Shown: positions 11,378 through 47,720, counted from the stretch's first letter. The stretch: 64,000 bases of DNA from Dehalococcoidia bacterium (GCA_965249275.1 CBDFLQ010000007.1:672001-736000), one strand, 5' to 3'. Notes: generated from the letters alone by a model not told the origin. Made by a program: numbers and translations.

Positions 11378-11384
11378 CTAGGAC

Positions 11385-12113: not shown

Positions 12114-12159
12114 CTCGTCTCCATAGATGAGACCTTTTACAACGTGCAATGAAGGGGCC

Positions 12160-14850: not shown

Positions 14851-14856
14851 ATCGAA

Positions 14857-17511
14857 TTAGCTGCCGTGGCAGCGCTTGTACTTTCTCCCACTGCCACACG
14901 GGCACGGATTGTTCCGCCCGACCTTCCCCACCGCCGCCCTTGCCTTGTCCCGGGACCGTACCGGGGCCCGGCCTCCCTGCGTCGGTTGACGCGCTGTAGC
15001 TCCGTTCGGCTGTGCACGGCCGTTGCCGTTCGCCGCACTCGGCGCCGCGGTAGCTGCCCGCAATGCGTCCCGATGCTTTATATCGAGATGGAACAGTGTC
15101 CGCACTATTCCGCTGCGAATCCTGGTAGTCAGGTCTTCGAACATCTCGTGGCTCCGGCGTTTGTAGGCCACCAGCGGGTCCCTCTGCCCAAACGCCTCCA
15201 GCCCGCTGCTCTGCCTCGAGTTCTCCATCGCCGTCAAGTGGTCCATCCAGTGCGTGTCGATTGTCCTCAGCATCACGTGCCGTTCCACCGCCCGGGCCCC
15301 TTGCTCACCCAACTTATCCGCTATGTTCTGGTACCGCTTGTCCAAATGCTCCATAAAGAAGACCGTGACCTCGTCCCGGTGCAACTGGCCAAGGTGTTCG
15401 GCATCAGCCTCCGCGGGAAGGGGGAACAGTCTCTCCATTGCGGTCAGCAGCCCTTCCAGGTCCCACGCGTCTCCGTGCTCGTCTCGTAAGTAGCGGTGTA
15501 CCGTTTCGGTGATCTCCGCCTCAACCAGGCTATGTATGCTGGCATCCACATCCGTACCTTCCAGCACCTTCCGCCTCTGCCCGTAGATCATGTCTCTGTG
15601 GTTATTCGCCACGTCGTCGTAGTCCACCAGCCGTTTACGTATGTCGAAGTTGATTCCCTCCACCTTCTTCTGGGCATTCTCCACCGACTTCGATATCCAC
15701 GAATGCTCCATCGGAGTCGACTCATCCATCCGCGCCCATTCCATCACCGTCTTTATCTTGTCCCCGCCGAACCGGCGCATCAGATCATCTTCCACCGAGA
15801 TATAGAACCGGCTGCTCCCCGGGTCTCCCTGCCTCCCCGCCCGGCCCCTCAGCTGATTGTCTATCCTGCGCGACTCATGCCTGTCCGTCCCTATGATGTG
15901 CAGGCCTCCCATCTCCACCACTTTCCGATGCTCGTCCTCCCACTCTTTCTCGTCCCGTCCCTCGGGATTCCCTCCGAGGATGATGTCGGTGCCCCGCCCC
16001 GCCATGTTTGTCGCCACCGTCACCGCCCCAATCCGGCCCGCCTGCGATATTATCCCCGCTTCCCTCTCGTGGTGCTTGGCATTCAGGACCTCATGACGTA
16101 CCCCTGTCCTCATTAGCTTTTCGCTAAGCCTCTCCGATTTCTCCACTGACGTAGTACCTACCAGCACTGGCCTACCCGACTCGCTAAGTTCTTTCAGGTC
16201 CCCTACCAGCGCGTCGAACTTCCCCTTCTCCGACCTGAATATCAGGTCGGGCCTGTCCTCTCGGACCATCTCCTGATGGGTGGGGATCATCACCACGTCC
16301 AGCTTGTATATCTTGTCAAACTCCTCCGCTTCGGTGACCGCCGTGCCCGTCATGCCGGATAGCTTTTCGTACAGACGGAAGTAGTTCTGAAGGGTGATAG
16401 TCGCCAGCGTCACACTCTCACGCCTGATCTCCAGCTTCTCCTTCGCCTCAATGGCTTGGTGCAGCCCGTCCGAGTACCGCCTCCCCGGCATCAGCCTTCC
16501 CGTGAACTCATCGACTATCGTCGCCTCCCCGTCCTTCACAACGTAGTCCTTGTCCCTTTCGAAGAAAACGCGCGCTTTCAGAGCATTGTCCATGTAGTGT
16601 GTCAGGGCGTAGTGCTCCGGAGCGAACAGGTTGTCGATGTTCAGGCTCTTCTCCACCTTTGCATACCCTACGGCGTTAAGAGCCACCGACTTGTGCTGCT
16701 CGTCAATCGTGTAGTCGGTGTCCCGAGTCAGCCTCGCCGCCAGCTGCGCGAAGGTCGAGTACAGCTTCGTCGACTCTTCCGCTTGTCCGCTTATGATCAG
16801 GGGTGTCCGAGCCTCGTCTACCAAGATGTTGTCTACTTCGTCGACTATCGCGTAGTTCAGATCTCCCTGCACCGTACGTGACAGGTCACCGGCCATGTTG
16901 TCCCGAAGGTAGTCGAACCCGAACTCGTTGTTGGTGCCGTAAGTGATGTCGGTGGCGTAGGCGTCCCTGCGGGTCAGGGGTATCAGGTCCTCGAAAGGCC
17001 CGTCCTTGGCCCCTGGTGCGAACTGGAAGGATGCTTCATGTTGAAGGCAGGATACCGTCAGTCCGAGAAAGTGAAATATAGGCCCCATCCACTGGCAGTC
17101 TCGACGCGCCAGGTAGTCGTTAACCGTAATTAGGTGTACACCCTCCCCCGTCAGCCCGTTGAGATACGCAGCGAGCGTAGAGACTAGCGTCTTCCCTTCG
17201 CCCGTCTTCATCTCGGCAATCTTTCCGGCGTGCAGCGTCATGCCGCCCATAAGCTGTACGTCGAAATGGCGCTGGCCCAGCGTCCTCTTGGCCGCCTCCC
17301 TCACCAGCGCGAAGGCCTCGGGAAGCAAAAAGTCCAGGGATTCCCCCTCTCCGAGGCGGGCCCTGAACTCATCGGTCTTGGCCTTCAGTTGGTGGTCCTG
17401 CAGACGCTCGAAATCGGCCTCAAGCCCGTTTATGGCATCAACTACCGGCTGGAATCTCTGGAGTTCCGCCTCGTTGCTGTTCCCTGCTAGTTTTGACAGC
17501 CAATTAAGCAT
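14857..17511 (-). CDS. secA: Preprotein translocase ATPase SecA
   Basis: MKTGEGKT, DEVD, ATNMAGRGTDI, RRIDNQLRGRAGRQGDPG, C-terminal SEC-C CPCGSG. Confidence 0.99.
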   Translation of the reverse strand: MLNWLSKLAGNSNEAELQRFQPVVDAINGLEADFERLQDHQLKAKTDEFRARLGEGESLDFLLPEAFALVREAAKRTLGQRHFDVQLMGGMTLHAGKIAEMKTGEGKTLVSTLAAYLNGLTGEGVHLITVNDYLARRDCQWMGPIFHFLGLTVSCLQHEASFQFAPGAKDGPFEDLIPLTRRDAYATDITYGTNNEFGFDYLRDNMAGDLSRTVQGDLNYAIVDEVDNILVDEARTPLIISGQAEESTKLYSTFAQLAARLTRDTDYTIDEQHKSVALNAVGYAKVEKSLNIDNLFAPEHYALTHYMDNALKARVFFERDKDYVVKDGEATIVDEFTGRLMPGRRYSDGLHQAIEAKEKLEIRRESVTLATITLQNYFRLYEKLSGMTGTAVTEAEEFDKIYKLDVVMIPTHQEMVREDRPDLIFRSEKGKFDALVGDLKELSESGRPVLVGTTSVEKSERLSEKLMRTGVRHEVLNAKHHEREAGIISQAGRIGAVTVATNMAGRGTDIILGGNPEGRDEKEWEDEHRKVVEMGGLHIIGTDRHESRRIDNQLRGRAGRQGDPGSSRFYISVEDDLMRRFGGDKIKTVMEWARMDESTPMEHSWISKSVENAQKKVEGINFDIRKRLVDYDDVANNHRDMIYGQRRKVLEGTDVDASIHSLVEAEITETVHRYLRDEHGDAWDLEGLLTAMERLFPLPAEADAEHLGQLHRDEVTVFFMEHLDKRYQNIADKLGEQGARAVERHVMLRTIDTHWMDHLTAMENSRQSSGLEAFGQRDPLVAYKRRSHEMFEDLTTRIRSGIVRTLFHLDIKHRDALRAATAAPSAANGNGRAQPNGATARQPTQGGRAPVRSRDKARAAVGKVGRNNPCPCGSGRKYKRCHGS

Positions 17512-17521
17512 CGGGCGCCCT

Positions 17522-18463
17522 TCATCCGAACAACGCCCCTACCGACTCCCCGCCGTGGATCCTTCGTATCGCTTCCCCCAACAGCGGCGCCATCGACAGG
17601 CTCGTTACCTTGCTGTTCCTCTTCATATCTGGCAGCGGCACCGTGTCCGTCACTACCACTTCCTGTACTATCGTATCCGACAGCACGTTCGTGGCGTTGC
17701 CAGAAAAGATCGGGTGCGTGCAGCTCGAATATATGTTCTCAGCCCCTCTCTCCCTGAGTGCCTCTATTGCCGCCACCAGCGAGCCCCCGGTATCTATTTC
17801 GTCGTCGAATGTTATTGCCGTCTTACCCCTCACGTCCCCAATGACGTTCAGGCTCTGTGCAGAGTCTCCGTTGCCGACCCTCCGCTTCTCGATGATTGCC
17901 AGGGGCGCATTCAGCCGTTCCGCCATGTCTCGCGCTTTCTTCGCTATCCCCACGTCCGTCGCCACAACCACCAGGTCGTCCAGCGCCTTCTCTTCGAAAT
18001 AGCCGGTAATTATCGGCAGGGCGGTGAGCTCGTCTACCGGGATGTTGAAGAAGCCTTGGATCTGTCCGGCGTGGAGGTCTACCGTAAGGACACGGTCGGC
18101 GCCTGCCACCGTTATCAGGTCAGCCACCAGTCGCGCCGTTATTGGCACCCGAGGCTGGTCTTTCTTGTCCGTACGCCCGTACCCGTAATAGGGCACCACT
18201 GCCGTAATTCGTCCCGCCGATGCCCGCTTCGCCGCATCTATCATGATCAGCAATTCCATAAGGTTGTTGTTGACCGGCGATACTACGGGTTGCACCAGAA
18301 AGACATCCCTTTCTCGGATGTTCTCCTGGATACGGACGAAGATATTCTCGTTCTTAAACTCGAATACTTCTATCTGCCCGAGTCCCAAGCCAAGATAGCT
18401 GCAGATATCCTCGGCTAGTTTCGGGTGAGCATTGCCGGTGAAGATTTTGAGTTCATCTCTCAC
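17522..18463 (-). CDS. prs: Ribose-phosphate pyrophosphokinase
   Basis: PYYGYGRTDKK, DLHAGQIQGFF, DDEIDTGGS. Confidence 0.97.
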   Translation of the reverse strand: MRDELKIFTGNAHPKLAEDICSYLGLGLGQIEVFEFKNENIFVRIQENIRERDVFLVQPVVSPVNNNLMELLIMIDAAKRASAGRITAVVPYYGYGRTDKKDQPRVPITARLVADLITVAGADRVLTVDLHAGQIQGFFNIPVDELTALPIITGYFEEKALDDLVVVATDVGIAKKARDMAERLNAPLAIIEKRRVGNGDSAQSLNVIGDVRGKTAITFDDEIDTGGSLVAAIEALRERGAENIYSSCTHPIFSGNATNVLSDTIVQEVVVTDTVPLPDMKRNSKVTSLSMAPLLGEAIRRIHGGESVGALFG

Positions 18464-18572
18464 CCCGGCACTCCCTCGGAACGGATTACATGACTGGTTA
18501 TAAAGCAGGGAAAAAGCATCGCGCCTGTAGAGACTGGTCTCCGCCTACCCCCGATTATAGCATAGCCCCCGC

Positions 18573-26902: not shown

Positions 26903-28096
26903 CTAGGAAGCCGCTATCGGCGCCCTCGCCGACTCCCGCTGGAACCGAGGTATGACCCTTTCATTGAACAGTTCCAGGCTGTGGTACACCGTCTCGAACG
27001 GCACGAAACCCGGGTTAGGCCACAGCGTAACGTGCTGGCAGTCTAACTCCTCCTGCAGCTTCGCAATCTTCTCCGCTACATAGTCCGGAGACCCGATCCA
27101 CGTTATTTCCTTCTCCTGCGCGAAGTCGAACCAGTCCATGTTCAACTCGTCGTTGGTTAGCTCTTCATCCACCGCCGCTGAGCCTGTTCGCCCCCATCTG
27201 TCGTTTATCCCCACGGCAGCCCTGAAGAACGCATTCACCCCCGGTCTTGCCTCTTTCTCTGCCTGCTCCTGAGTCTCGGCTACGTGGGTTAGCCTCATGA
27301 CATTCAGGCTCTTTCCGTCCGGGGTTCTCGCAAAAGGTATGTTCCCTCCGAATGCCTTGGACGCCGCCACCTGATACGCGTTCCACGCCTCCCTGACTCC
27401 GTCGAAGGTCCGGCCCACCGTCGTCGTGCATATCCCCCGAGTCCCGGCAAACGTGTACGAGCTTGTGCTGTCTGCAGCCTGGTATATCGGCGGGCGAGGC
27501 TTCTGGTACGGCTTCGGCATCACGTGCAGACCTATCAGCTCACCGTCCGGGCCAAAGTGACTCGAGTCCCCGGCGTATATGGTCGGGTCTTTCTCCTTCC
27601 ACCCTGGGACCGGGTACGTGTAAAAACGGCCCTCGTGGCTGAAGGCTCCATCTCCCCAAGCCTTTAGGAGAATGTCCAGCGTCTCGCTGAACAGCGCGTA
27701 GTTCGTCTCCCTGTCCCGCCTGTTGGCATTCACGTTGAACTGGATGCTAGCGGTGCTGTCCGTCCCCCGAGCTATACCCACGTCCAGCCGACCCTTCGTC
27801 ATGTTGTCCAGCATCGCCAGCTCTTCCGCCAGCCTGATCGGGTTCCAGTCGGGCAGAATGCAAGCTGTCTGCCCGACCCGAATCCTCTCCGTCAGCCCAG
27901 CGAAGAAGGTGCAAACTTGCACTGGATTCGGCGCCGCCACCGGCCACCCGCTGTACCAGAAGTGGTGCTCACCCACCCAGACCCCCGTGAAGTCGGTCTG
28001 GTCGTACAGAAGGGCGGTCTCCTTCCACTCTTCCATCAGTTTGTCGGCCGGGTATTGCTCTACTTCGTGATAGTAGATGTTGCTGTCGAAGCGCAT
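26903..28096 (-). CDS. LLM-class flavin-dependent oxidoreductase (luciferase-like)
   Basis: WVGEHHF, NPIRLAEELAMLD, GRLDVGIARG, PKPYQKPRPP. Confidence 0.9.
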   Translation of the reverse strand: MRFDSNIYYHEVEQYPADKLMEEWKETALLYDQTDFTGVWVGEHHFWYSGWPVAAPNPVQVCTFFAGLTERIRVGQTACILPDWNPIRLAEELAMLDNMTKGRLDVGIARGTDSTASIQFNVNANRRDRETNYALFSETLDILLKAWGDGAFSHEGRFYTYPVPGWKEKDPTIYAGDSSHFGPDGELIGLHVMPKPYQKPRPPIYQAADSTSSYTFAGTRGICTTTVGRTFDGVREAWNAYQVAASKAFGGNIPFARTPDGKSLNVMRLTHVAETQEQAEKEARPGVNAFFRAAVGINDRWGRTGSAAVDEELTNDELNMDWFDFAQEKEITWIGSPDYVAEKIAKLQEELDCQHVTLWPNPGFVPFETVYHSLELFNERVIPRFQRESARAPIAAS

Positions 28097-34219: not shown

Positions 34220-36919
34220 TTAGTTCCCACCCTCTCTCACCAACCTCGCCACCTCATCCAACGCCGCCGACACCTTGCTCTTGTCCTTTCCCCCCGCCTG
34301 CGCCATCTCCGGGGTCCCACCCCCACCCCCTCCCGCTACCTTCGCCACCCTCTTCACGATATTCCCGGCGTGTAAACCCTTGGCCGCCAGGTCAGGCGTC
34401 GCCATGGCAACGAACATCGGCCTGTCGTTTATCACCGACGCCAGCACCACGAACACGCTCCCCAGCTTAGCCTTCAGAAAGTCGCCCATCTCCCGCATCG
34501 TCTCGACATTCGGCGCATCCACCCGGGCCGCGACCACCTGCGCCCCGTCCACATCCTGCACCCGGCCCAGCAGTCCCTCTGCCTCCCGACGCGCCGCATC
34601 CCGCTCCAGCCTGTCCGCCCGCCTGCGCTCCGCGTCTCGCTCTTCTACTAAGGCCGCGACCTTATCGACGATCTCTTCCGCCGGTGATTTCAGTTGTGCC
34701 GATAGCTCTTCAACGAGGTCGTAGCGCCGCACCAGCAGGTCCTGCACCGAGCCCCCAGTCACCGCTTCGATCCTCCTCAGCCCTGACCCTATGCTCCCCT
34801 CATCCGTTACCTGGAAGTTCCACACCTCTCCCGTACGGCCGACGTGCGTCCCTCCGCAAACCTCGAAGCTGAATCTGTCATCCCCATCCCCCATCGACAC
34901 CAGCCTGACCACGTCCGGATACTTGTCCCCGAAGAATGCCAGCGCGCCCCTGGAAATCGCCTCCGGATACGGGGCCTCGTCGTTGGTAATCTGAAGGTCG
35001 GAGCTAATCTTTTCATTCACCAGGTTTCGGATGTCGTGGAGGTCGGCTCTCCCCAGCCCGACCGGATGCGTGAAGTCGAACCTCAACCTGTCTGGCGCAA
35101 CCAGCGACCCCGCCTGCCTGACGTGCTGCCCGAGCACTTGCCTCAGAGCAGCGTGAAGCAAGTGCGTCGCCGTGTGGTTCCTCGCCGACTCCCTCCGGTG
35201 TCCCGGGTCCACTGTCATCGTCACCGGGTCCCCGACAACCATCTCTCCATCCACAACCCTCCCCCGATGCACGTAGAACCCCAACATCGTAGCCTGCGTG
35301 TCCTCGACAATAATCCGGCCGGCCGGCCCCGTGATCTCCCCCCTGTCCCCGACCTGCCCCCCACCCTCCGCGTAGAAGGGCGTCTCCATCGTCACCACTT
35401 CCAACTCCTCGCCTCCCCCAACCCTCTGCACCGACACCCCTTCCCTCAGCAGCCCCACCACCACCGACTCCCCAGCCAGCGTCTCATATCCTGTGAACCG
35501 TGTCGCACCTAGCCCCACCGCCGCATACGCCTCCGACATCTTGTCCTTGCGGAACGACTGGGCTGCCCTCCCCCGCTCCCTCTGCGCCTCCATCTCCCTC
35601 TCAAACCCCTCCATATCCACCGCGAACCCCTCTTCGGCCGCCACCTCTTCTGTGAGTTCCGGCGGGAACCCGTATGTGTCGTATAGCCTGAAAACGTCCC
35701 GTCCCCCGATAACTCGCTTCCCAACGTCATGTGGTTCCTCCTCAATCGGTGTCGGCGGGATTATCTCAACTTTGCCAAGTTTGATTTCTAACGTTCCTAC
35801 GTTGATTGTGAGATTCTTTACTTCGATCATCCCCGCGTCCAAAGTGTCGTGGAACCGAGATTCTTCCTGCTCAATCACATTCAAGATGAACTCCCGGTTC
35901 CTCTCCAGGTCCGGGTACGCCTCCCTCATATTCTCGATAACCGTCTCGGCTATAGTCACCAGCACCGGCTCCCGAACCCCGAGTTTCCGCGCAAACGTCA
36001 CGGCCCGACGCAATATCCTCCGTAGCACGTACCCCCGGCCCTCATTCCCCGGCACCACGCCGTCGCTGATCAGGAAAGTCGTCCCTCGGGCGTGCTCCGC
36101 CAGCACCCGCATCGCCGCATCCGTTTCCTTGTCCGACCCATACGTGCGCCCGGTCACCTCCGACACTTTCCCCATGATCGCCTGGAACCCGTCAGTCTCG
36201 TAGACGTTCGTAACGCCCTGCATTATCGCCGCCGTCCGCTCCAGCCCCATCCCCGTGTCGATGTTCCCGCTAGGCAGGGGTGTCCGATTGCCCTCCGTGT
36301 CCTGGTAGTACTCGGTGAGCACAAGGTTGTAGAACTCGGTGAACCGGTTGCAATCGCAGGCCGGGCCGCAGTCCGGCTTGCCGCACGAAAGCTCCTTCCC
36401 GAAATCGTAGTAGATCTCTGTGCACGGCCCGCACGGCCCCGAGTCCCCCGGCGGCCCCCACCAATTCTCGCTCTCGTCGTACCGTACTAGCCGTTCTTCC
36501 GGCACCCCCAGTTCCCGCCACAGCTCGTACGACTCGTCGTCACTCAGAAAAACGCTTACCCATAGCTTTTCCGGCGGCAGTTTCAGCCGCTTGGTCACCA
36601 GTTCCCACGCCCACTCTATCGCCTCCTTCTTGAAATAGTCCGCAACACTGAAGTTGCCCAGCATTTCGAAGAAGGTCAGGTGGTCTGCATCCCCCACGGA
36701 GTCGATGTCCGTGGTCCGGAAGCACTTCTGGCACGAGGCCAGCCGAGGCGCGGGGGCCTTGGCCTCCCCCGTGAAAAATGGCTTGACCTGCACCACCCCG
36801 GCGCTGGTCAACAGCAGAGTCGGGTCTCCAATGGGTATCAGGGACGAGCTTGGTATGACCAGGTGCCCCTTCGATTCATAAAAGGACAGGAATGCTCGCC
36901 TTAGCTCGTCGCTGTTCAA
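34220..36919 (-). CDS. alaS: Alanine--tRNA ligase
   Basis: TFFEMLGNFS, DTGMGLER, LYDTYGFP, HTATHLLH, EVCGGTHV. Confidence 0.99.
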   Translation of the reverse strand: MNSDELRRAFLSFYESKGHLVIPSSSLIPIGDPTLLLTSAGVVQVKPFFTGEAKAPAPRLASCQKCFRTTDIDSVGDADHLTFFEMLGNFSVADYFKKEAIEWAWELVTKRLKLPPEKLWVSVFLSDDESYELWRELGVPEERLVRYDESENWWGPPGDSGPCGPCTEIYYDFGKELSCGKPDCGPACDCNRFTEFYNLVLTEYYQDTEGNRTPLPSGNIDTGMGLERTAAIMQGVTNVYETDGFQAIMGKVSEVTGRTYGSDKETDAAMRVLAEHARGTTFLISDGVVPGNEGRGYVLRRILRRAVTFARKLGVREPVLVTIAETVIENMREAYPDLERNREFILNVIEQEESRFHDTLDAGMIEVKNLTINVGTLEIKLGKVEIIPPTPIEEEPHDVGKRVIGGRDVFRLYDTYGFPPELTEEVAAEEGFAVDMEGFEREMEAQRERGRAAQSFRKDKMSEAYAAVGLGATRFTGYETLAGESVVVGLLREGVSVQRVGGGEELEVVTMETPFYAEGGGQVGDRGEITGPAGRIIVEDTQATMLGFYVHRGRVVDGEMVVGDPVTMTVDPGHRRESARNHTATHLLHAALRQVLGQHVRQAGSLVAPDRLRFDFTHPVGLGRADLHDIRNLVNEKISSDLQITNDEAPYPEAISRGALAFFGDKYPDVVRLVSMGDGDDRFSFEVCGGTHVGRTGEVWNFQVTDEGSIGSGLRRIEAVTGGSVQDLLVRRYDLVEELSAQLKSPAEEIVDKVAALVEERDAERRRADRLERDAARREAEGLLGRVQDVDGAQVVAARVDAPNVETMREMGDFLKAKLGSVFVVLASVINDRPMFVAMATPDLAAKGLHAGNIVKRVAKVAGGGGGGTPEMAQAGGKDKSKVSAALDEVARLVREGGN

Positions 36920-36984
36920 CTCTGCCCTTTTCCTTGGGTAGGACCCAATCCGACCTTTGTCTCGCCAATTTCAACTGCCTCACG

Positions 36985-37013
36985 ATTGTAGGCAAACCCC
37001 ATACCTCAGTCAA
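36985..37013 (-). promoter_or_regulatory. Sigma70 promoter of the alaS operon
   Basis: Minus-strand TTGACT-17nt-TACAAT. Confidence 0.6.
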
Positions 37014-37082
37014 CGAACCCTTACATCTGCGTAATTCCCCCAAACCGGATTGCGAAGTACGCCATATCCAAGGGTGGGACAG

Positions 37083-37249
37083 CCCGCTCGTGCTGTCGCA
37101 GGTGGACCATGCGCCTGTAGAGGATCCGCTTCGGCGGGAACCTGCTGAAAGTGGACCATCCGCCTATGGAGGGTCCGCTTATAGAGGATCGAAGTATGAG
37201 CGGGGGGAGTGGGGCCGCTCGTGCTGAGCCCGTCGAAGTATGAGCGGGG
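37083..37249. repeat. Tandem family C REPs, the first expanded by doubly nested hairpin inserts
   Basis: 37083-37204 is CCCGCTCGTGCTG...TCGAAGTATGAGCGGG with two ~43-nt inserts, each holding a GTGGACCAT..GAGG sub-insert; 37211-37249 is the basic form. Confidence 0.85.
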
Positions 37250-37360
37250 AGGGGTACCGCACCCCATAAATACCAATCGACACCCCTAACCGTGTCATGG
37301 GGTAATGCAGCCACTCCCCGCACCCCATGCTATAATCCAAACCCTAAAAGGGAGGCGGCT

Positions 37361-38341
37361 TTGCCCTACCAACGAGACCTTCTGCCCTCGTTCGCCGGTA
37401 TCAACACCTTCGCCCGTGCCCCGCAGGCCGGATTCGAGGATGTCGGGCCCGGTTGCGTCGCCGTCTTAGGCGTCCCCCACGACGGCTCCTCCACCTCCCG
37501 CCAGGGCGTTAGGCAGGGCCCCCGGGCTATCCGGGAAGCCAGCGCCGACTTCATCTACGAACTCCAGGCCTCCGAGGCTGGTGCCCTCATCGACGTCATA
37601 TCAGGCCGGGTGCTCCACCTCCCCCAACCCTCGACCCTTCTCGACCTCGGAGACCTCACCCTTTCTCCTCTGGACCTTCCCGGCAACCTGGATGCTTGCC
37701 GATCCGCCTTCTCCCGCATCGCCGAAGCCGGTGCCTGCCCCGTCGCCCTCGGCGGCGACCGCTTTATCACATTCCCCCTCCTTGAGGGCGTGAAGGCCGG
37801 ATCGGGCCGCAGCCTCGGCCTGATACGCATCTCCGCTGAACTCTCCCTCGCCGACCCCGATTCCCAATACGGCCCCGATTGGTCCGGCGCTTCTATCCGC
37901 CGCATCCTGGACGCCGGCGGCGTCGAGGCCCGTAACACAGTATTAGTCGGGACCCAGGGCTATATACCCTACCGGGAGTGGGAGTACGCTCGCTCACAGG
38001 GCGTCACCGTAATAACCGCCGACTCAGTGAAAGCCGAGGGCCTCGAGGCAACAGTGCGCCGGGCGTTGGAAATCGCAGGACAGGACTGCGAAGCCGTCTA
38101 CCTCAGCCTCGACATCGGCGTTGTCGACTCCGGCTATGCATCCGGTACCGCCGAAGTTGTAGTCGGTGGCCTTATTCCCCGCGACCTGCTCGCTATCATG
38201 CGCGAGCTTTCCGCATTCCCCAGGGTCGCCGCCCTTGACGTAGTAGAGGTAGCCCCCGGTCTCGACGTCCGAGGACGCTCCGAACGCCTCGCTGCCCAGG
38301 CCATTATCGAACTTATTGCACCCCCCGTTTTCGGGGCGTAA
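37361..38341 (+). CDS. Ureohydrolase (arginase/agmatinase) fold protein A, metal ligands lost
   Basis: TTG after GGAGG and TGCTATAAT extended -10; GPRAIR; GGDR, ISAELS and DIGVVD replace GGDH, DxHxD and DxD. Confidence 0.85.
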   Translation: MPYQRDLLPSFAGINTFARAPQAGFEDVGPGCVAVLGVPHDGSSTSRQGVRQGPRAIREASADFIYELQASEAGALIDVISGRVLHLPQPSTLLDLGDLTLSPLDLPGNLDACRSAFSRIAEAGACPVALGGDRFITFPLLEGVKAGSGRSLGLIRISAELSLADPDSQYGPDWSGASIRRILDAGGVEARNTVLVGTQGYIPYREWEYARSQGVTVITADSVKAEGLEATVRRALEIAGQDCEAVYLSLDIGVVDSGYASGTAEVVVGGLIPRDLLAIMRELSAFPRVAALDVVEVAPGLDVRGRSERLAAQAIIELIAPPVFGA

Positions 38342-38354
38342 CCCCGAGACCCTT

Positions 38355-39338
38355 ATGACCACACAGTCGGCCCCCGTATCCACACCCGGCATTTCCACCT
38401 TCATGGACCTGCCCCGAGGCGACTTGGAGCACCTCAAAGAAGGTATGGCTGCAATCTGCGGCGTCTCCTATGACCTGTCCTGCACTACTAAGATTGGGTC
38501 GAGGTTTGGCCCACGAGCCATCCGGGATAGCTCCGGTTATTACGCCGGCGCATTCTCCCGCTCCGACCTCGTTGAAATCACTACCGGCGACCGCATGAGC
38601 GGCGACCGTCGCTCCCAAATTCTTGACCTCGGCGACTTCAACGCCTACCCCCTCGACTGGCCCCGCACAGAAAAAGAGCTCCGACGCTCCCTCTACGAAG
38701 TGTCCGCCACCGGTGCGACCCCCGTGATTCTCGGTGGCGATCACTTCGTCTCCTATCCCCTATGCCTCGGCTACGCCGACGCCATCCGCGAGCGCACCGG
38801 CCGCGGCATCGGCTACGTCCAACTTTCCAGCCGACTTGATCTCGGCACCCGAGACCCGGTCTGGGGAGACGTATGGCGTGGCGCAACCGCCCGGCGCATC
38901 CTGGACTCTGGGGCCGTTGCCCCGAAGAACATGGTCTGGATTGGCGTTAACGGCTACCTCCGCCGAGAGGAGTGGGACTTCGCCCAGGAAAGAGAGTTGT
39001 CCGTATTCACTCTCGAAGACGTGCGCCGCCGAGGCCTGCAGAACGTGGTCGAAAACGCAATGGAAATTGCAGGAGACGGATGCGACTCCGTCTACGTCAG
39101 CATCGACTTTGATGTGATGGACGGCGGTATCGTCGCCGCCACCTCAGACCCGTGCTTCGACGGCCTCACCAACGTCCAGCTTCTCAAAGCCGTCGACATC
39201 CTCCGCCGAAAGAAGGCCGGGGCCCTGGACCTTGTTGGCATGAATCCCACGGTGAATATGATTTCCGCCACCGGCCCCCGACTCGGGGCATGGATCGTCA
39301 TCCGGTTCCTCGCTGGAGAGGCCCTCGCCTATCCCTAG
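38355..39338 (+). CDS. Ureohydrolase fold protein B, degenerate metal site
   Basis: GGDH and DFDVMD kept; DxHxD replaced by SSRLD; DLVE changed to DLVG. Confidence 0.88.
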   Translation: MTTQSAPVSTPGISTFMDLPRGDLEHLKEGMAAICGVSYDLSCTTKIGSRFGPRAIRDSSGYYAGAFSRSDLVEITTGDRMSGDRRSQILDLGDFNAYPLDWPRTEKELRRSLYEVSATGATPVILGGDHFVSYPLCLGYADAIRERTGRGIGYVQLSSRLDLGTRDPVWGDVWRGATARRILDSGAVAPKNMVWIGVNGYLRREEWDFAQERELSVFTLEDVRRRGLQNVVENAMEIAGDGCDSVYVSIDFDVMDGGIVAATSDPCFDGLTNVQLLKAVDILRRKKAGALDLVGMNPTVNMISATGPRLGAWIVIRFLAGEALAYP

Positions 39339-39352
39339 GCCATGACTTAACT

Positions 39353-40324
39353 ATGCAAAACTACGCGTACACATCGTCCCCCACCTTCATGGGCGCCCCC
39401 CTTGTAGGCCTCTCCGATGTCCAGCCGGGCATGACGGTGATCAGCGGCGCTCCGCATAGCCTCCGAGACCGCTTCGGCGAGAGGTACGGCCCCCGAGGCA
39501 TCCGCGAGCACTCCCTGCCCCTTGCCCAGAGTTTCGACCGCGCCGAAGAGGGTTTGATCGACGTGTCCACCGGGCGCACCCTCATCCGCCCCACCCAATC
39601 CCCCCTCGTAGACGTCGGCGACTTCAACAGTTACCCCTCCGACGTCATGAAAGCCACCGAGGGCATTGCCGGCGGCGTTTCGGAGGTGGTGATGAGGGGC
39701 GGATTCTCCGTCTGCCTGGGCGGCGACCACTACGTCGGTTACCCATCCTGCCTCGGATACACACGGGCCCTAAGCCAAATCAGGCCCAACGCCCGGGTCG
39801 GCTACATCCACATCGACGGCCACCTCGACTTCGCCGACTCCTACGGCCCCTACGGCAAGTACATGAATGGCACCAACGCCCGCCGAATCTCGGAGCTGGA
39901 CGCCATGGAACCCGCCAACATGGTTTTCATAGGCATCCAGGGCCCCTGCTACCTGGACCAGGTCGAGCTCATCCGCCGCTACGGAGGCACGATTTTCACC
40001 AGCGAGGACGTGGAGGAGATGGGCCCCGAGACCGTCGGACGCCGCGCCGCCGAGCTGGCCCTCAAGGGCTGTGACTCTATCTACATGAGCTTCGACATCG
40101 ACGTCATAGACGCCGGCTTCTCTGACGGCACAGGCTCAGTCACTATGGGGGCCATGACGGCATCCACCCTATTCCGCATCCTCGGGCCCCTGTCCGAATA
40201 TCCCATCGGCGCAATGGACCTTGTGGAGACCTCCCCACCCCTCGACGCCGGCAGCCGCACCCCCCGGTTCGCCGCCGAGGCCCTCGTCAAGCTAATCGCT
40301 CCAAGAATATTTGATATCTATTGA
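39353..40324 (+). CDS. Ureohydrolase (agmatinase-like) protein C, intact binuclear site
   Basis: GGDH, DGHLD, DIDVID, DLVE. Confidence 0.9.
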   Translation: MQNYAYTSSPTFMGAPLVGLSDVQPGMTVISGAPHSLRDRFGERYGPRGIREHSLPLAQSFDRAEEGLIDVSTGRTLIRPTQSPLVDVGDFNSYPSDVMKATEGIAGGVSEVVMRGGFSVCLGGDHYVGYPSCLGYTRALSQIRPNARVGYIHIDGHLDFADSYGPYGKYMNGTNARRISELDAMEPANMVFIGIQGPCYLDQVELIRRYGGTIFTSEDVEEMGPETVGRRAAELALKGCDSIYMSFDIDVIDAGFSDGTGSVTMGAMTASTLFRILGPLSEYPIGAMDLVETSPPLDAGSRTPRFAAEALVKLIAPRIFDIY

Positions 40325-40342
40325 GAACACGACCGACTCGGC

Positions 40343-40555
40343 ATGAAGAAGAGCGTAATCACTTGGCCCATGCTCCTGACGGGGTTAGTCCTGTTTTTCA
40401 TCGCGGGAATCGCGTTGTGGTTTCTCCACGACCTCTTCCACGACAGCATAGGCATATCCCTGTTATTGCTGTGGGTGGTGGCGGTCGTGGCATTTTGGGC
40501 TACCGTCCTGCTAATTGTGCTCAAGCTATTCAAGCAGATTTGGCAGAGAGTCTGA
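40343..40555 (+). CDS. Small two-TM membrane protein
   Basis: 70 aa with two hydrophobic stretches and basic termini; fills the gap in the operon. Confidence 0.6.
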   Translation: MKKSVITWPMLLTGLVLFFIAGIALWFLHDLFHDSIGISLLLLWVVAVVAFWATVLLIVLKLFKQIWQRV

Positions 40556-40577
40556 TGCTTAGAGTGACGAGGCCGTA

Positions 40578-41573
40578 ATGCCAATCCGCAGAGGCCCCAC
40601 ACCCAAGACCGGTGGGTTGCTCACCTTCATCGGTGCCCCGACGGGGACTATCGAGGAGCTGACACCCGGCATGTTCGGCGTATTCGGCGTGCCCTACGAT
40701 GTATCCGCCCCCGACCAGCTCGGCCCCCGACTCGCGCCCAAGGCCTATCGGGAAACCTCCACCTACTTCCAGATGATGACCGCCCAGGACGCGACTCTCG
40801 TCGAGATCAACTCCCGCCTTCCAACCGACACCAACCTCGTCCGCGACCGTGTCCGTGACCTGGGTGACCTCCCCGTATCCCACGTCGATTGGGAGATACT
40901 GTCTTTCACCCTTCGGGACGCAGCAAAACGCATCAGCAGCCAGGGCGCCGTGCCCATTGCCCTGGGCGGCGACCACTTCATCGCCTCCGCCTTGGCCCAG
41001 GGCTACCGGAAAGCAACCGGCGGACATATCGGTTATATCCAGCTCTCCAGCCGCCTGGACCTCGGCCTCCGAGACCCCGCTTGGGGAGACGTATGGCGCG
41101 GAGCCACAGTTCGCCGCCTCCTGGACTCGGGGACCGTCCACCCGAAGAACTTGGTATGGATCGGCGCAAACGGCTACATACCGCTCGACCAGTGGCAGAT
41201 TGCAAACAGACTGCCGGCTACTATGATCGACGCAGAGCAAGTCCGCCGCCGCGGCATCCCCAATGTAATAACCGAAGCCCTGGAACGGGCCTCCGACGGC
41301 TGCTCCGGCGTCTTCGTGGGCGTTGACATAGATGTCATGGACGGCGGTTACGTAGCCATGACCGGAACTCCCCGCTTCGACGGCCTCCGAAACGTGGACC
41401 TCTTCGAAGCTCTCACCCTCCTGGCCCGAGGCCCGGTTGGCGGCGTCAGCCTATGTGGCTTAAACCCTCTCATCGAGACCATGAGCCTGGCCAAAACAGG
41501 TCAGCGCTGCGGTGCAGAGATGCTGGTCCGTTTCATCGACGAGAAAATCAGAGTAGCCGAGGCCGCCAAGTGA
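40578..41573 (+). CDS. Ureohydrolase fold protein D, degenerate metal site (paralog of B)
   Basis: GGDH, QLSSRLDLG, WGDVWRGAT and DIDVMDGG match protein B. Confidence 0.88.
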   Translation: MPIRRGPTPKTGGLLTFIGAPTGTIEELTPGMFGVFGVPYDVSAPDQLGPRLAPKAYRETSTYFQMMTAQDATLVEINSRLPTDTNLVRDRVRDLGDLPVSHVDWEILSFTLRDAAKRISSQGAVPIALGGDHFIASALAQGYRKATGGHIGYIQLSSRLDLGLRDPAWGDVWRGATVRRLLDSGTVHPKNLVWIGANGYIPLDQWQIANRLPATMIDAEQVRRRGIPNVITEALERASDGCSGVFVGVDIDVMDGGYVAMTGTPRFDGLRNVDLFEALTLLARGPVGGVSLCGLNPLIETMSLAKTGQRCGAEMLVRFIDEKIRVAEAAK

Positions 41574-42571
41574 GTGAATTGCTGGAACACGTAGAAGACA
41601 TCGGCGCAGCCACCTTCCTTGGCTCGCCCTACGTTGCCCTGGACAAAGTTGAGCGCGGGATGGTCGTCATCGGCGGAGCCCCCCACGACAGCACCCACAC
41701 CAGCCGCTTCGGCACCAGAATGGGCCCCCGAGGCATCAGGGAAGGCTCCCTCGCCATGGCCGACCGCATAAGCAGCGCAGGCCCCGACGGCATCCTTGAA
41801 GTCACATCCGGCAACCGGCTCACCACCCCCGCTTCCAACCGACTCGTAGACGTAGGCGACTACAACGTCTACCCATCCGACGTGATGAAGTCCACCGAGG
41901 GCATAGCCGGTGGAGTGGCAGAGGTGGTGCGTCGGGGCGGCTTTTCCGTCTGCCTGGGCGGCGACCACTACGTCGGCTACCCATCCTGTCTAGGCTACAC
42001 CCGAGCCGTCTCCGAGATGTCTCCGAAACCCAAGATTGGCTACATCCACATCGACGGCCACCTCGACTTCCGAGACGACACCCCCGTCTGGGGCAAGTAC
42101 AACCACGGCACCAACGCCCGCCGCATATCCGAGCTCGACCTCGTCAGCCCTTCCAACATGGTCTGGATCGGCATTCAGGGCTGGTCGGACGAGGAGCCCA
42201 TCAGTGCTATCGACTCCCAGGGAGGCCTCATCTTCACCGCCGCCGACGTTCTAAGGATTGGCCCCGAAGAGGTAGCCCGACGCGCAGGCGAGCGCGCTGC
42301 CGCCGGATGCGACTTCATCTATATGTCCGTCGACATCGACTTTATAGACACTGGCTTCTTCCCAGCCACCGGCTCCGTGGTCAACGACGCCATCACCCCC
42401 GACATCATGGCTACTATCCTTCGCGTCCTCTCTGCCTACCCAATAGGCGCCATGGATCTCGTCGAGGTATCTCCCCGCATCGACCCCTCAGGCCGTTCCA
42501 TGATTATGTCCACCGACCTCCTTCTCGCCCACGTGGCCCCCCGCATCTTCGACATTGCGCCAATGGGCTGA
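41570..42571 (+). CDS. Ureohydrolase (agmatinase-like) protein E, intact site (paralog of C)
   Basis: GTG overlaps the D stop (GTGA); GGDHYVGYPSC, DGHLD, NHGT, DIDFID, DLVEVSP. Confidence 0.9.
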   Translation: MSELLEHVEDIGAATFLGSPYVALDKVERGMVVIGGAPHDSTHTSRFGTRMGPRGIREGSLAMADRISSAGPDGILEVTSGNRLTTPASNRLVDVGDYNVYPSDVMKSTEGIAGGVAEVVRRGGFSVCLGGDHYVGYPSCLGYTRAVSEMSPKPKIGYIHIDGHLDFRDDTPVWGKYNHGTNARRISELDLVSPSNMVWIGIQGWSDEEPISAIDSQGGLIFTAADVLRIGPEEVARRAGERAAAGCDFIYMSVDIDFIDTGFFPATGSVVNDAITPDIMATILRVLSAYPIGAMDLVEVSPRIDPSGRSMIMSTDLLLAHVAPRIFDIAPMG

Positions 42572-42592
42572 CTCGCGTTAGGCCTCTTTTTT

Positions 42593-43270
42593 ATGGGTAT
42601 CCTTGATAAAATCCGGGGCCTCAGTTGGGTTGTAGGCTCCCGAAAGGGCGAAAAAGCCGTCAAAGAGGGGCGCTGGGAAGATGCCCTGGTTCACCTTGAT
42701 GAAGCCCTCGCCCTTAACTCAAAGGATGCCCACGCCTACTTCTACCGAGGTCTCGCCCACGGCGGGCTCGGCAACCTGAACGCCGCAATCCGGGACCTGA
42801 ACTCGGCCAAAAAGTTCGGCCCGCAAGACAGCGCTCTCCTCAGCAACCTCGGCACCTGCTACCTCAGGAAAGGGCATTTTTCCGCCGCGCTCAAGGAATA
42901 CAAGAAGGCCCTGAAAATAAATCCAAAGGACGCCCGAGCCCTGCTTAACGTAGGAATCGTCTATGCCAAACAGGCGGAAACAGCTCCGCCCAGGTCCGAG
43001 CCAAGGCTCACCGCCCGAGCCCTCGAGTCCCTGGACAAGGCCATTATCAGCGATCCAAATCTCCCGGAGGCCTACCACGAGAGGGCACTGCTCCTCGCCG
43101 ACAAAGACCGTCTGAACGAGGCCATAGAAGACCTAACTCGCGCAATCAACATGGACAATTCCTACACCGAAGCCTACCAAGACCGTGAAAGTCTTTACCG
43201 CCGGCTCGACAAGAGTGAAAAGGCGGGTGCGGACAAATCCACCCCTCGGGAGTTGGACCCCGGAACTTAG
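42593..43270 (+). CDS. Tetratricopeptide repeat protein
   Basis: Repeated A-Y/L-x2-G/A...A-x6-A-L-x3-P TPR pattern. Confidence 0.88.
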   Translation: MGILDKIRGLSWVVGSRKGEKAVKEGRWEDALVHLDEALALNSKDAHAYFYRGLAHGGLGNLNAAIRDLNSAKKFGPQDSALLSNLGTCYLRKGHFSAALKEYKKALKINPKDARALLNVGIVYAKQAETAPPRSEPRLTARALESLDKAIISDPNLPEAYHERALLLADKDRLNEAIEDLTRAINMDNSYTEAYQDRESLYRRLDKSEKAGADKSTPRELDPGT

Positions 43271-43288
43271 CCGAGGCTCACCCGACCC

Positions 43289-44842
43289 CTACGCCTTCCC
43301 GTACTCCTCCCTTAACACACGCTTCAGCACTTTCCCCAATGGGTTACGGGGCAGCGAGTCGACGAAAATCACCGATTCCGGCTTCTTGAAGCTGGCCAGC
43401 TGGCCTCTGCAATGCTCGATTATGTCTGCTTCGGAGGCCTGAGCCCCGGCCTTTAGTGCCACTATCGCACGGACCGTTTCACCCCACTGCGGATCGGGCA
43501 CCCCGATAACCGCCGCCTCGTCGATGGCCGGATGCGAGTGCAGTGTCGCCTCCACCTGCTCCGGTGAGATGTTCTCCCCGGCCCGGATGATGATGTCTTT
43601 CGCCCGACCCGACAAGAAGATATACCCGGCCTCGTCCATGTAACCGATGTCCCCGGTATACAACCAGCCGTTACGGATTGTGTTGTTAGTTGCCTCGTCA
43701 GCCTTCCAGTAGCCCTTCATAACCCTCGGCCCCCGAGCCACGATCTCCCCAACCTCGTCCACCGGCTGCTCGCTCCCGTCCTCGTCGAATATCTTCACTT
43801 CCGTGTCACCCAGTGCTCGCCCTATGGACCCCAGCCTCTTCAGTTTGATCGCCCTCTCCCCCGGCGAACCCTCGATAACGTGGTCCTCCGGAGTCAGCAT
43901 CGTAATCGTAGACGCCGATTCCGTCTGCCCAAAGGCATTGATAAACCTCGTGCCGGGAAACACCTCGATAGCTTTTGTTATCACTTCCACGGGCATGGGG
44001 GCCGCGCCGTAGGTGATGACTTGCAAGCTGCTCAGGTTACGCTCGGGGAATTCTTCGTGTTCCATTAGCTGCTTAAGCATGGTCGGCACCATCATGGCCC
44101 GGGTCACGCTCTCCGACTCCACCAGCGTCATCCAGTCGCTCGGCTCAAACTGTCGCTGTACGACCAGGGTCCGGCCTCCATACACTGCGGCCAGCACCGC
44201 CTGCATTCCTGCTATGTGATACAAGGGCACGGTGAGAATGTTCTTCTCTTCGATATCCGGGTCGGCGGGGCTCACGTTGTTTAGCACGTAGGTCGCCAGG
44301 TTGTCGTGGGTCAACATCACACCTTTGGGCTGACCCGTAGTACCGGCGGTAAACATCAGGATGGAAGTGTCGTTGTCGTCTATGTCCGTGAACACCTCTT
44401 CGGGGTCCGCCTCGGCGATGACCGACTCATAGTCCAGCATTCCTTCCGCCGGCCCCTCCACCGATACCAAATTCTTCATTCCCGGAATCTGTTCTCGCAT
44501 CGAATTAATCATTTTGACGTAGCGCTGCCCCAAAAATAGCGCCGAGGCTTCCGAGAAATTGATCATGAACTCCAGCTCTTCGGCCCTGGCGCGGAAGTTG
44601 AGGGGCACGTAAGTCGCTCCCAGCTTCGCCGTTGCGAAGTAGACCTCAATGCATTCGTTGCAGTTGACCTGCAGCATTCCCACCTTGTCTCCCTGCCCCA
44701 CACCCATCCCCGCAAGCGCATTGGCCAGCCGGTTAGACCGATCAGCCAGGTCTGAGAAACTCCACCTGTTCCCTTCGAATATGATCGCTTCCCGGTCGGG
44801 ACATATGGAACTGGAGATAAGAAGAAATTCAGGCGTGTTCAT
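43289..44842 (-). CDS. Long-chain fatty-acid--CoA ligase (AMP-binding)
   Basis: FTAGTTGQPKG, FGQTE, GWLYTGD, GRAKD, LPRNPLGK. Confidence 0.93.
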   Translation of the reverse strand: MNTPEFLLISSSICPDREAIIFEGNRWSFSDLADRSNRLANALAGMGVGQGDKVGMLQVNCNECIEVYFATAKLGATYVPLNFRARAEELEFMINFSEASALFLGQRYVKMINSMREQIPGMKNLVSVEGPAEGMLDYESVIAEADPEEVFTDIDDNDTSILMFTAGTTGQPKGVMLTHDNLATYVLNNVSPADPDIEEKNILTVPLYHIAGMQAVLAAVYGGRTLVVQRQFEPSDWMTLVESESVTRAMMVPTMLKQLMEHEEFPERNLSSLQVITYGAAPMPVEVITKAIEVFPGTRFINAFGQTESASTITMLTPEDHVIEGSPGERAIKLKRLGSIGRALGDTEVKIFDEDGSEQPVDEVGEIVARGPRVMKGYWKADEATNNTIRNGWLYTGDIGYMDEAGYIFLSGRAKDIIIRAGENISPEQVEATLHSHPAIDEAAVIGVPDPQWGETVRAIVALKAGAQASEADIIEHCRGQLASFKKPESVIFVDSLPRNPLGKVLKRVLREEYGKA

Positions 44843-46559: not shown

Positions 46560-47720
46560 GTGCCCTTGCAATTCGGATATTTTTCCGTTCTAGATAACCC
46601 TAGACTTGAAATTCCCTATAACCAGATCCTGACCGAGCTTTCCGAACAGACCCAAGCCGTCGAGCAGGCTGGATTCAACGGCGTGTGGCTCGGAGAACAT
46701 CACTTCGGAGGAGAGGGATATGACTGCATCCCCAACCCGCTGATGATTCTCTCCCACCTCGCTGCTCAGACCACCACCATCCGGCTGGGCCTTGCCGCCG
46801 TAATAGTACCCCAGTGGCACCCTCTCCGAATCGCCGAAGATGTCGCCATGCTCGACCAGCTAAGCGGCGGCCGCGTCGAGTGCGGTGTCGGACGAGGCAT
46901 CTTCCCCAGGGAACTCACCAACCTCAACATCGACGCCGACCGCCGCAATGACGCGAAGAACTGGCGTCTCTTCACCGAAACCGTAGAGATCATGAAACGG
47001 GCCTGGACCGAAGACCCCTTCACCTGGGACGGGGAGTTTTACAAGTTCCCCCATACCGGCGTCCAGGACAGCCACTCCTGGCTTCCCAGGGACCCGAGAT
47101 ACCGCTCCAAGACGGGCGAGTACATAGGCATGTCGATTCAGCCCAAACCCCTCCAGACTCCCACCCCTCCACTCTGGAACGTAGTCGACAAGACTCCCGG
47201 TTTTGTCGTCGCCGCCGAGCTCGGACTCAAGCCCATGACCTGGCTCCGCGCCCGCAACGGTCTCCGAGAGGCCTTCTCCACCTACCAGGAGGCCGCGACA
47301 CGCATCAACGGCCGGCCCATGGCTCTCGGTGAAGACTGCGCCCTTCTCCGCACCACCTTCGTCGCCGAGACCATGGAAGAGGCCCGCAGAATCGCCGAAG
47401 GACCTCTCAACCAGCTCTGCAAATATGTAGGGGGCGTCCGTGCCCGTTCCATCTACCTGGACCCGGGCGAAGAGCTTACCGACGAAGACAAAGCCAAGCC
47501 GTGGTTCGACTTCCTGATGGACAAGGACCACATTCTCATCGGCGACCCGGAGTTCGTCGCCGAGAAGATCCGGGGCATTGGGCGGGAGTACCAGCTTGAG
47601 AGCCTGTTAACCCTCATGGCTATGCCCGGCCTGGACCATCGCGACGTGATGCGCTCCATTGAGCTCTTCGCCGAGAAGGTCATTCCCCTCGTCGAGGCTC
47701 CACAGGCCGCCGTAGGTTAG
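46560..47720 (+). CDS. LLM-class flavin-dependent oxidoreductase (luciferase-like)
   Basis: WLGEHHF, HPLRIAEDVAMLD, GRVECGVGRG, PKPLQ. Confidence 0.9.
   Translation: MPLQFGYFSVLDNPRLEIPYNQILTELSEQTQAVEQAGFNGVWLGEHHFGGEGYDCIPNPLMILSHLAAQTTTIRLGLAAVIVPQWHPLRIAEDVAMLDQLSGGRVECGVGRGIFPRELTNLNIDADRRNDAKNWRLFTETVEIMKRAWTEDPFTWDGEFYKFPHTGVQDSHSWLPRDPRYRSKTGEYIGMSIQPKPLQTPTPPLWNVVDKTPGFVVAAELGLKPMTWLRARNGLREAFSTYQEAATRINGRPMALGEDCALLRTTFVAETMEEARRIAEGPLNQLCKYVGGVRARSIYLDPGEELTDEDKAKPWFDFLMDKDHILIGDPEFVAEKIRGIGREYQLESLLTLMAMPGLDHRDVMRSIELFAEKVIPLVEAPQAAVG

Follow-up and report, generated by a model that had tools for sequence, protein, structure and literature searches.

Heteromeric ureohydrolases with a dead partner subunit were first described in 2024, for metformin hydrolase and dimethylguanidine hydrolase, and were presented, in the excerpts of the reports cited here, as unique in their family and recently evolved. 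In both systems (MefH/MfmAB and DmgH) co-expression of an intact α subunit with a degenerate β subunit was needed, α alone being insoluble or inactive, and the degenerate subunit was exchangeable but essential (PMC11399263, PMC11271267, PMC11647477; statements taken from these three papers refer to excerpts of their text). Six residues normally coordinate two metal ions in this family (PMC11399263), and MfmB-type subunits have lost 3-5 of the six (PMC11271267). In the cited part of their report, Li et al. list 56 MetCaCb-like pairs from four phyla, Chloroflexota not among them, and HypA/HypB/HupE accompany most of these pairs (PMC11271267). Here we analyse a stretch of 64,000 nucleotides (nt) from a soil-type Dehalococcoidia bacterium (GCA_965249275.1 CBDFLQ010000007.1:672001-736000; 'the window', with positions counted from its first letter), which carries at 37361-42571 (+) five consecutive arginase-fold open reading frames (ORFs), A to E, in the same orientation.

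We establish below the gene content of this locus, the state of its metal ligands, its conservation, the selection on it, its phylogeny and its independence from MfmAB. By analogy with the heteromeric enzymes, we read it as an ancient five-gene operon in which C and E would be catalytic and A, B and D would serve as non-catalytic partner subunits in hetero-oligomers, and we give this reading an even chance of being correct. What is new here is an independently evolved and more elaborate form of the pseudoenzyme-enzyme theme among ureohydrolases, with a partner role that is proposed by analogy. Nothing in print on the five-gene cluster was found in the literature searched, where most matches were judged by their title and the start of their abstract.

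Gene layout, metal ligands and selection

The five genes are arranged as follows.

37361-38341, + strand: A, strongly degenerate arginase-fold paralogue, 326 amino acids (aa), TTG start, PF00491
38355-39338, + strand: B, half-degenerate arginase-fold paralogue, 327 aa, PF00491, WRGA loop
39353-40324, + strand: C, intact ureohydrolase, 323 aa, PF00491, MNGT loop
40578-41573, + strand: D, arginase-fold paralogue, half-degenerate like B, 331 aa, PF00491
41570-42571, + strand: E, intact ureohydrolase, 333 aa, GTG start, PF00491, NHGT loop

All five products match the arginase family profile PF00491 over nearly its full length (from profile positions 3-4 to 263-277 of 280), with E = 5e-58, 5e-46, 1e-49, 3e-39 and 2e-54 and scores of 197, 158, 170, 136 and 185 bits for A to E, against a gathering score of 22 bits. 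This agrees with the original prediction, made from the sequence alone, of five arginase-fold genes in a single orientation. The same prediction had likened B to D and C to E, and these pairs are indeed 46% and 57% identical, versus 26-35% for the remaining pairs. Translational coupling of D and E had also been proposed, and the GTG start of E does overlap the TGA stop of D in the GTGA at 41570-41573; the 4-nt overlap is kept in 9/11 of the five- or six-gene loci described below. The A-B and B-C spacers measure 13-18 nt in most loci, and the C-D gap in the window is 253 nt. In the protein collection that we searched, all five types are currently annotated as 'agmatinase family protein' only.

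Ligand states were taken from an alignment of the five proteins with each other and with their relatives, at the His of GGDH, the Asp, His and Asp of DxHxD and the two Asp of DxD, plus the conserved Glu; the metal that each position serves we take to be that of rat arginase. C and E read H-D-H-D-D-D, with 6/6 ligands and the Glu kept (motifs GGDH, DGHLD, DID and DLVE), so that the claim that they keep all binuclear ligands holds. B and D read H-S-R-D-D-D, with 4/6 ligands and the Glu replaced by Gly (GGDH, SSRLD, D-x-D and DLVG / SLCG), and A reads R-S-E-S-D-G, with 1/6 ligands (GGDR, SAELS and DIG). A had been described as stripped of essentially all ligands, which is accurate; its Glu is kept (DVVE). 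For B and D, the predicted SSRLD motif and the loss of the Glu are both present, but 'metal-less' was an overstatement, since 4/6 ligands are kept and are nearly fixed across the family. The difference between the MNGT loop of C and the NHGT loop of E, which had been pointed out as well, is real.

One genome per species was scanned with an alignment of the B/D family, and 16 loci were returned; by title, 14 come from Dehalococcoidia metagenome-assembled genomes (MAGs), 1 from Chloroflexota and 1 from Candidatus Rokubacteria, which is in keeping with the Dehalococcoidia lineage named beforehand. The window and 14 complete loci share the order A-B-C-D-E, and two loci cut by contig ends (L010 and L016) are consistent with it (17 sources in all), with B ranging from 97% down to 60% identity to the window protein. 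SSRLD-type and DGHLD-type genes thus recur in a fixed A-B-C-D-E order in relatives, where the original prediction had suggested that their synteny be checked. C and E have 6/6 ligands plus the Glu in every locus, and the full set of six ligands and Glu is present in C and E in 15/15 complete loci and incomplete in A, B and D. In every locus B and D read H-S-[RQ]-D-D-D with Gly, the sole exception being D of L007 (H-S-R-D-D-S). A reads H-S-Q-D-D-D plus Glu, i.e. 4/6, in L007-L009 and L011-L014, and H-S-Q-A-D-G, i.e. 2/6, in L006; R-S-x-S-D-G is restricted to the clade of the window. As A has 4/6 ligands in the distant loci and 1/6 in the window clade, we regard it as the third member of the degenerate lineage, which has undergone further and recent decay.

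Larger arrays of up to nine arginase-fold genes are present in five loci (L009, L011, L012, L014 and the contig-end-cut L010). The nine-gene arrays (about 5500-15700 in L009, L011, L012 and L014, with L010 and L016 cut short) run in one orientation and hold five intact and four degenerate genes, a second degenerate type, G-D-R-D-D-S, among them; an arrangement as three sets of one active and two inactive genes was considered and rejected on the basis of this alignment.

Family signatures were drawn from a large protein collection, using the best 120 matches each for B/D and C/E and 77 clusters for A. The B/D type accounted for 105 of its best 120 matches (102 complete, 3 partial). The first Asp is kept in 0/102 complete members and the Glu position is Gly in 101 and Val in 1, while the first His is kept in 97/102 and the full string H-S-[QR]-D-D-D is found in 66/102. 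Among the best 120 matches for C/E, 118 read H-D-H-D-D-D with the Glu. For A, 72 of the 77 clusters are complete, and 33/72 read H-S-Q-D-D-D with the Glu, the rest being more degenerate. Clustered at 90% identity, the collection holds >100 clusters of the B/D type and 77 of the A type. When the B/D profile was compared with 50%-identity representatives, the best 150 comprised 107 canonical sequences, 13 partial ones and 30 with at least one change; their source names read 'agmatinase/arginase family protein' only and point to Chloroflexi and Methylomirabilota bins.

A complete A-E cluster is also present in L013, the locus with the Candidatus Rokubacteria title, and the proteins P0193 and P0267 are named Methylomirabilota. 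The five L013 proteins nest among Dehalococcoidia proteins in the trees described below, and the occurrence of the cluster in another phylum points to a transfer of the entire operon or to an error in binning.

Selection was measured by the Nei-Gojobori ratio of nonsynonymous to synonymous substitution rates (dN/dS) between the window and six relatives (L001-L005 and L015). The ratios were 0.13-0.24 for A, 0.05-0.12 for B, 0.03-0.13 for C, 0.09-0.17 for D and 0.06-0.13 for E, and 0.08-0.13 for the neighbouring alanyl-tRNA synthetase (AlaRS) gene. All five genes are under purifying selection, A being the most relaxed. The original prediction had argued for selection rather than decay from the identical substitutions in B and D, and this is upheld by the dN/dS of A, B and D (0.05-0.24) and by the B/D signature, with the first Asp lost and the Glu replaced in 102/102. 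It is highly improbable that A, B and D are pseudogenes in decay, as remnants of a tandem duplication. Ligand loss in A is progressive, from 4/6 in the distant loci through 2/6 in L006 to 1/6 in the window clade, as such decay would have it, but besides the low dN/dS the reading frames of A, B and D are intact in 15/15 complete loci, each of the three forms a clade of orthologues with identities down to about 48-60%, and the many distinct clusters of both degenerate types counted above speak against decay as well.

Phylogeny and family assignment

A first tree (quick IQ-TREE, LG+C20, support from the Shimodaira-Hasegawa-like approximate likelihood ratio test (SH-aLRT) only, E. coli SpeB as outgroup) contained 62 rows, from the window, L003, L004, L006, L007, L008, L011 and L013, one L012 protein and 15 distant matches (P0111-P0125); L001, L002, L005, L009, L010, L014-L016 and the rest of L012 were left out as redundant or cut by contig ends. 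A, B, C, D and E each formed one clade (100*, 92, 99*, 85 and 98*, respectively). B and D were joined at 100*, with A as their sister at 92, and C, E and E2 formed a group with 100*. This topology is the one expected for a duplicated inactive+active pair from which A had split off earlier, and it indicates that all five genes are older than the sampled genomes. The layout of duplicated inactive+active pairs that had been proposed therefore appears to be ancient, given the A-E order in all related loci and the sister relationships of B to D and of C to E.

A further degenerate type was observed in P0117, P0120 and P0365 (GGDH / GCELG / G-x-D, Glu kept). It adjoined the A/B/D clade in the first tree (88) and was unresolved in the second.

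The second tree had 52 rows: MfmA and MfmB of P. mendocina were added (from plasmid pMET-2, via the accession in PMC9800807), and the rows of L003 and L004 were removed along with P0113 and P0114. MfmA and MfmB paired with each other (98*). A-E fell with several intact relatives into a separate 99* clade, which places A-E outside the MetCa/MetCb clade. Forcing MfmB to group with A/B/D cost 48.8 log-likelihood units (approximately unbiased (AU) test, p = 0.001), a comparison in which the test group was chosen with knowledge of the unconstrained tree and the Mfm branches are long. According to this tree and test, the degenerate A/B/D clade arose independently of MfmB. The precedent of MfmAB, to which the original prediction had appealed, stands as a functional analogy; A-E are not relatives of MfmAB. 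In a tblastn search of plasmids with C, mfmAB was not among the matches.

A-E reach none of the NCBIfam equivalog cut-offs. They score 62-97 bits against the 174.3 bits of TIGR01230 and 87-126 against the 302 bits of NF002564 (both agmatinase SpeB), 50-122 against the 229 bits of TIGR01227 (formimidoylglutamase HutG), and 49-77 against the 228 bits of TIGR01229 (arginase RocF). E. coli SpeB is a distant outgroup in both trees. An AlphaFold2 model of B has the arginase fold, with a predicted local distance difference test (pLDDT) score of 83 and a predicted template modelling (pTM) score of 0.88. In Foldseek the model matches the MfmAB chains, guanidinopropionase and guanidinases about equally well (E 5e-21 to 2e-20), and MfmB ranks only fifth among the solved relatives of the B/D profile.

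Promoter, operon limits and genomic context

Three further features belong to the operon region.

37328-37336, + strand: extended -10 promoter box TGCTATAAT, ending 24 nt upstream of the A start
37350-37355, + strand: ribosome-binding site GGGAGG of A, 6 nt upstream of A, read directly
40343-40555, + strand: small ORF of 70 aa with two hydrophobic helices, putative membrane protein, in the C-D gap

The operon had been predicted to lie behind a single TGnTATAAT promoter, and the box was confirmed at this site. The sequence TGCTATAAT occurs twice in the window, against 0.30 times expected, and in 10/13 loci (the window, L001-L008 and L015) A is preceded at 33-44 nt by a TGnTATAAT box, with diverged flanking sequence. 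The box is absent upstream of A in L013, L011 and L009, and A is internal to the nine-gene arrays of L009 and L011. The box went unlisted in a scan of the window for sigma-70 -35/-10 promoters, for want of a matching -35 hexamer. AGGGAGG or AAGGAGG is found at the same spacing before A in L001-L005 and L015. The only other TGCTATAAT in the window, at 18554-18562 (-), precedes the ribose-phosphate pyrophosphokinase gene (17522-18463, -) by ~90 nt, as would be expected if promoters of the extended -10 type are common in this organism.

Divergent to A, across a spacer of 440 nt, lies the AlaRS gene. Two sets of direct repeats were observed in this spacer, 37093-37131 / 37142-37180 (39 nt, 79% identity) and 37189-37205 / 37233-37249 (17 nt, 100% identity), and they could belong to an AlaRS leader or to regulation of the operon; the repeats have no match in Rfam. 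A riboswitch or other RNA element at the operon was considered and rejected, as an Rfam search of 36700-43400 at E <= 1 gave two sub-threshold matches at chance level only.

The 70-aa ORF, which the original prediction had missed, is an insert specific to one lineage. Four relatives share it with 57-84% aa identity, namely L003 (11989-12201) and L004, L005 and L015 (about 11981-12200). In the two closest relatives, L001 and L002, the ORF is disrupted, its middle part being replaced or frame-shifted, and more distant loci lack it, as do L006-L008 with their C-D gap of 5-89 nt. It has no Pfam match. L004, L005 and L015 carry a second ORF in the C-D gap, of 130 aa with hydrophobic stretches, at about 12263-12672.

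A-E form an autonomous operon unit. In L015 (about 8231-17652) A-E are turned round as one block with respect to the flanking AlaRS and tetratricopeptide repeat (TPR)/acyl-CoA-synthetase genes, compared with the window and L001-L004, and the inverted block retains its own TGnTATAAT box. The TPR gene (42593-43270) was considered as a sixth member of the operon and rejected: it stays with the flank in L015 while A-E are inverted, and so lies outside the unit, and it is absent in L005.

According to Pfam assignments for 43 ORFs, the neighbours in the window are housekeeping genes (AlaRS, RuvX and shikimate genes) and acyl-CoA genes, and neither urease nor a nickel chaperone lies near the operon. 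The predicted lack of HypA/HypB in the window was confirmed by these assignments and by tblastn with the pMET-2 proteins. Neither the window nor the 10 kb around the cluster in each of the 16 loci yielded HypA, HypB or HupE (best E 0.68), the rest of the genomes not having been searched. This absence, together with the presence of such genes beside MfmAB and most MetCaCb-like pairs, bears on another explanation, namely that the degenerate paralogues are regulators, assembly factors or metal-delivery factors that bind C and E transiently, for example as stand-ins for HypA/HypB-type chaperones or as substrate sensors. The free variation of the ligand positions in A, in a protein that is still under selection, would suit such a role too. 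However, Mn could well be the metal, and it needs no chaperone; we also know of no precedent for a degenerate ureohydrolase acting as a regulator or chaperone, nor of a chaperone role for the arginase fold. We consider this explanation quite unlikely.

A gene of the DUF1989 family follows the cluster in the more distant loci, directly after the larger arrays, and starts 9 nt past the last array gene in L011. Its product falls below every NCBIfam cut-off; the best partial match is to the DUF1989 part of trimethylamine N-oxide (TMAO) demethylase, with weak matches to UAAP1/2. The DUF1989 family includes carboxyguanidine deiminase (PMC11271267), and the gene is a lead towards guanidine-type chemistry, nothing more.

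Elsewhere in the window, the following genes were observed.

7248-8855 (+), 5406-6410 (+), 26903-28096 (-), 46560-47720 (+) and 10256-11209 (+): jointly, genes for a LarA-like protein (Lar_N domain), three luciferase-like monooxygenases and a DDE transposase

The LarA family uses a nickel-pincer cofactor.

Proposed partner subunits and comparison with known ureohydrolases

We take A, B and D to be partner subunits of C and E because of the analogy with MefH/MfmAB/DmgH. C and E look like complete binuclear-metal hydrolases. Their likeliest reaction is the cleavage of a guanidino or amidino group with urea as a product, and the solved enzymes nearest to them hydrolyse guanidine, guanidinopropionate and guanidinobutyrate. 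A, B and D descend from one ancestral paralogue in which the bridging Asp and the second-site His were lost; they cannot build the binuclear centre, yet are kept by purifying selection. They may join C and E in hetero-oligomers, trimers or hexamers being usual for the fold, and the catalytic subunits may depend on them for folding, solubility or activity, as metformin/dimethylguanidine hydrolase depends on MfmB/MefH-β. Heteromer formation, the pairing of partners, the metal and the substrates are what we infer.

Several observations weigh against this assignment. Neither physical nor computed evidence of binding was obtained for any pair among A-E. Complex prediction for C (alignment A3) with B (alignment A2) gave 0.44, 0.02 and 0.11 against a mark of 0.32, in a run without controls, and counts neither for nor against binding. 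Mirror-tree (distance-matrix) correlations over 15 genomes and 10 five-gene loci carried no partner-specific signal, with partial correlations of 0.64-0.79 for C-E, 0.46-0.61 for B-C, 0.40-0.66 for A-D and -0.09 to 0.16 for D-E. Three degenerate to two intact subunits do not map simply onto α2β4, and the nine-gene arrays, with their five intact and four degenerate genes, argue that there is no simple stoichiometric rule. No transporter, regulator or downstream enzyme among the 43 ORFs of the window hints at a substrate. In addition, three of the retained ligands (His130; Asp162, which ends DxHxD; Asp251, which opens DxD) do not vary among the 49 sequences of the B/D alignment A2, down to 38% identity, and the replacement loop WRGA is nearly invariant in the family. 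A retained single-metal or ligand site would fit B and D at least as well as a purely structural role.

These residues lead to the main competing explanation, in which B and D, and ancestrally A, keep a mononuclear metal site or a ligand site and act separately, as homomeric enzymes whose chemistry has changed or as proteins that bind a related compound. The His and the three Asp would be retained, Arg or Gln would fill the lost second site, and the operon would encode parallel or sequential activities. The four remaining ligands of B/D are near-fixed, and the dN/dS of B is as low as that of the intact C and E; moreover, the same positions drift freely in A, so that the constraint on the ligands is specific to B/D. 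On the other hand, every complete B/D member has lost the bridging Asp, the second-site His and the substrate-binding Glu, and to our knowledge no arginase-fold hydrolase works without these three residues. The B/D genes also always stand beside an intact paralogue in the loci seen. Taken together, we regard separate homomeric functions as rather unlikely.

To return to the proposed heteromers, the reading can be taken one step further, and in this joint form we hold it to be doubtful: A-E would represent a second, independent and much older lineage of hetero-oligomeric ureohydrolases, with three degenerate and two catalytic paralogues, B and D being half-site proteins, working free of chaperones on natural guanidino substrates. 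If so, A, B and C might form a trimer in which one active subunit stands with two inactive ones of different kinds, while coupled translation would yield a second enzyme from D and E. In B and D a single metal or ligand site would persist, with Arg or Gln replacing the second metal, and the enzymes would need no nickel chaperones to act on the natural guanidino compounds of soil Chloroflexota. Dependence on a pseudo-subunit would in that case be a solution reached more than once in this fold, rather than a recent peculiarity of enzymes that degrade metformin.

The cluster is conserved down to about 50-60% protein identity in 15 genomes of uncultured Dehalococcoidia plus Rokubacteria/Methylomirabilota-titled MAGs. 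With its three kinds of degenerate subunit and graded loss it offers a natural series (6/6, 4/6, 2/6 and 1/6) for what a pseudo-subunit must retain, and a ready gene set for asking whether partner dependence is general in the arginase fold. The annotation as 'agmatinase family protein' hides this design of intact and degenerate genes, which may point to an unexplored turnover of guanidino compounds in abundant soil bacteria.

Among described enzymes, GdmH (Synechocystis 7esr and Nitrospira inopinata 9fek) is the best solved relative of C (E 7e-31 and 9e-30) and of the B/D profile (E 2e-42 and 8e-42), with the same fold. It differs in being encoded by a single gene, and its identity to B is about 24-25% by structural alignment; GdmH was compared by similarity only. 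GdmH is homomeric and Ni-dependent and has dedicated chaperones. GpuA (3nip) and GbuA (3nio) of Pseudomonas aeruginosa come next among the solved relatives (E 6e-27 and 2e-20 with C; 6e-35 and 6e-33 with the B/D profile), and they are single-gene enzymes without a degenerate partner. A tandem from putative Limnocylindrales (Sinn et al. 2024) resembles A-E as an arginase-fold tandem in Chloroflexota, and the excerpt of that source calls it independent of MefH (PMC11399263). In the source-data alignment, inspected by eye, both of its proteins show GGDH, D-x-H-x-D, D-x-D and V-E and so appear intact, with no SS[QR]LD partner; the tandem was rejected on this basis as a member of the same family.

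The closest parallel remains with MfmAB/MefH/MetCaCb and DmgH (Ni-dependent α2β4), which share with A-E the adjacency of arginase-fold genes, one with six ligands and one degenerate, and, by analogy, the same working model of a pseudoenzyme partner that the catalytic subunit requires. The DxHxD motif is altered in a similar way, to GAQLD in MfmB and to SSQLD/SSRLD in the A/B/D lineage, and the AlphaFold2 model of B superposes on the MfmAB chains with a Foldseek E of 5e-21 and TM scores of 0.78-0.80. The two differ in the extent of the loss: MfmB has GGDR, GAQLD and N-x-N, in a type for which the excerpted source gives 3-5 lost ligands, whereas B and D have lost 2/6 plus the Glu. Judged by the 3-5 of 6 changed ligands given there for MetCb-type proteins, A with 5/6 changed falls within the range and B and D with 2/6 below it, all three in a cluster with intact genes adjacent. 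MfmAB is one pair, whereas five paralogues, three degenerate and two intact, are found here; hypB, hypA and hupE lie beside mfmAB on pMET-2, and none lies near A-E. The host phyla differ as well, Chloroflexota/Methylomirabilota not being among the 56 pairs in the cited part of Li et al. Finally, A-E are ancient, whereas MfmAB has been presented as recently evolved.

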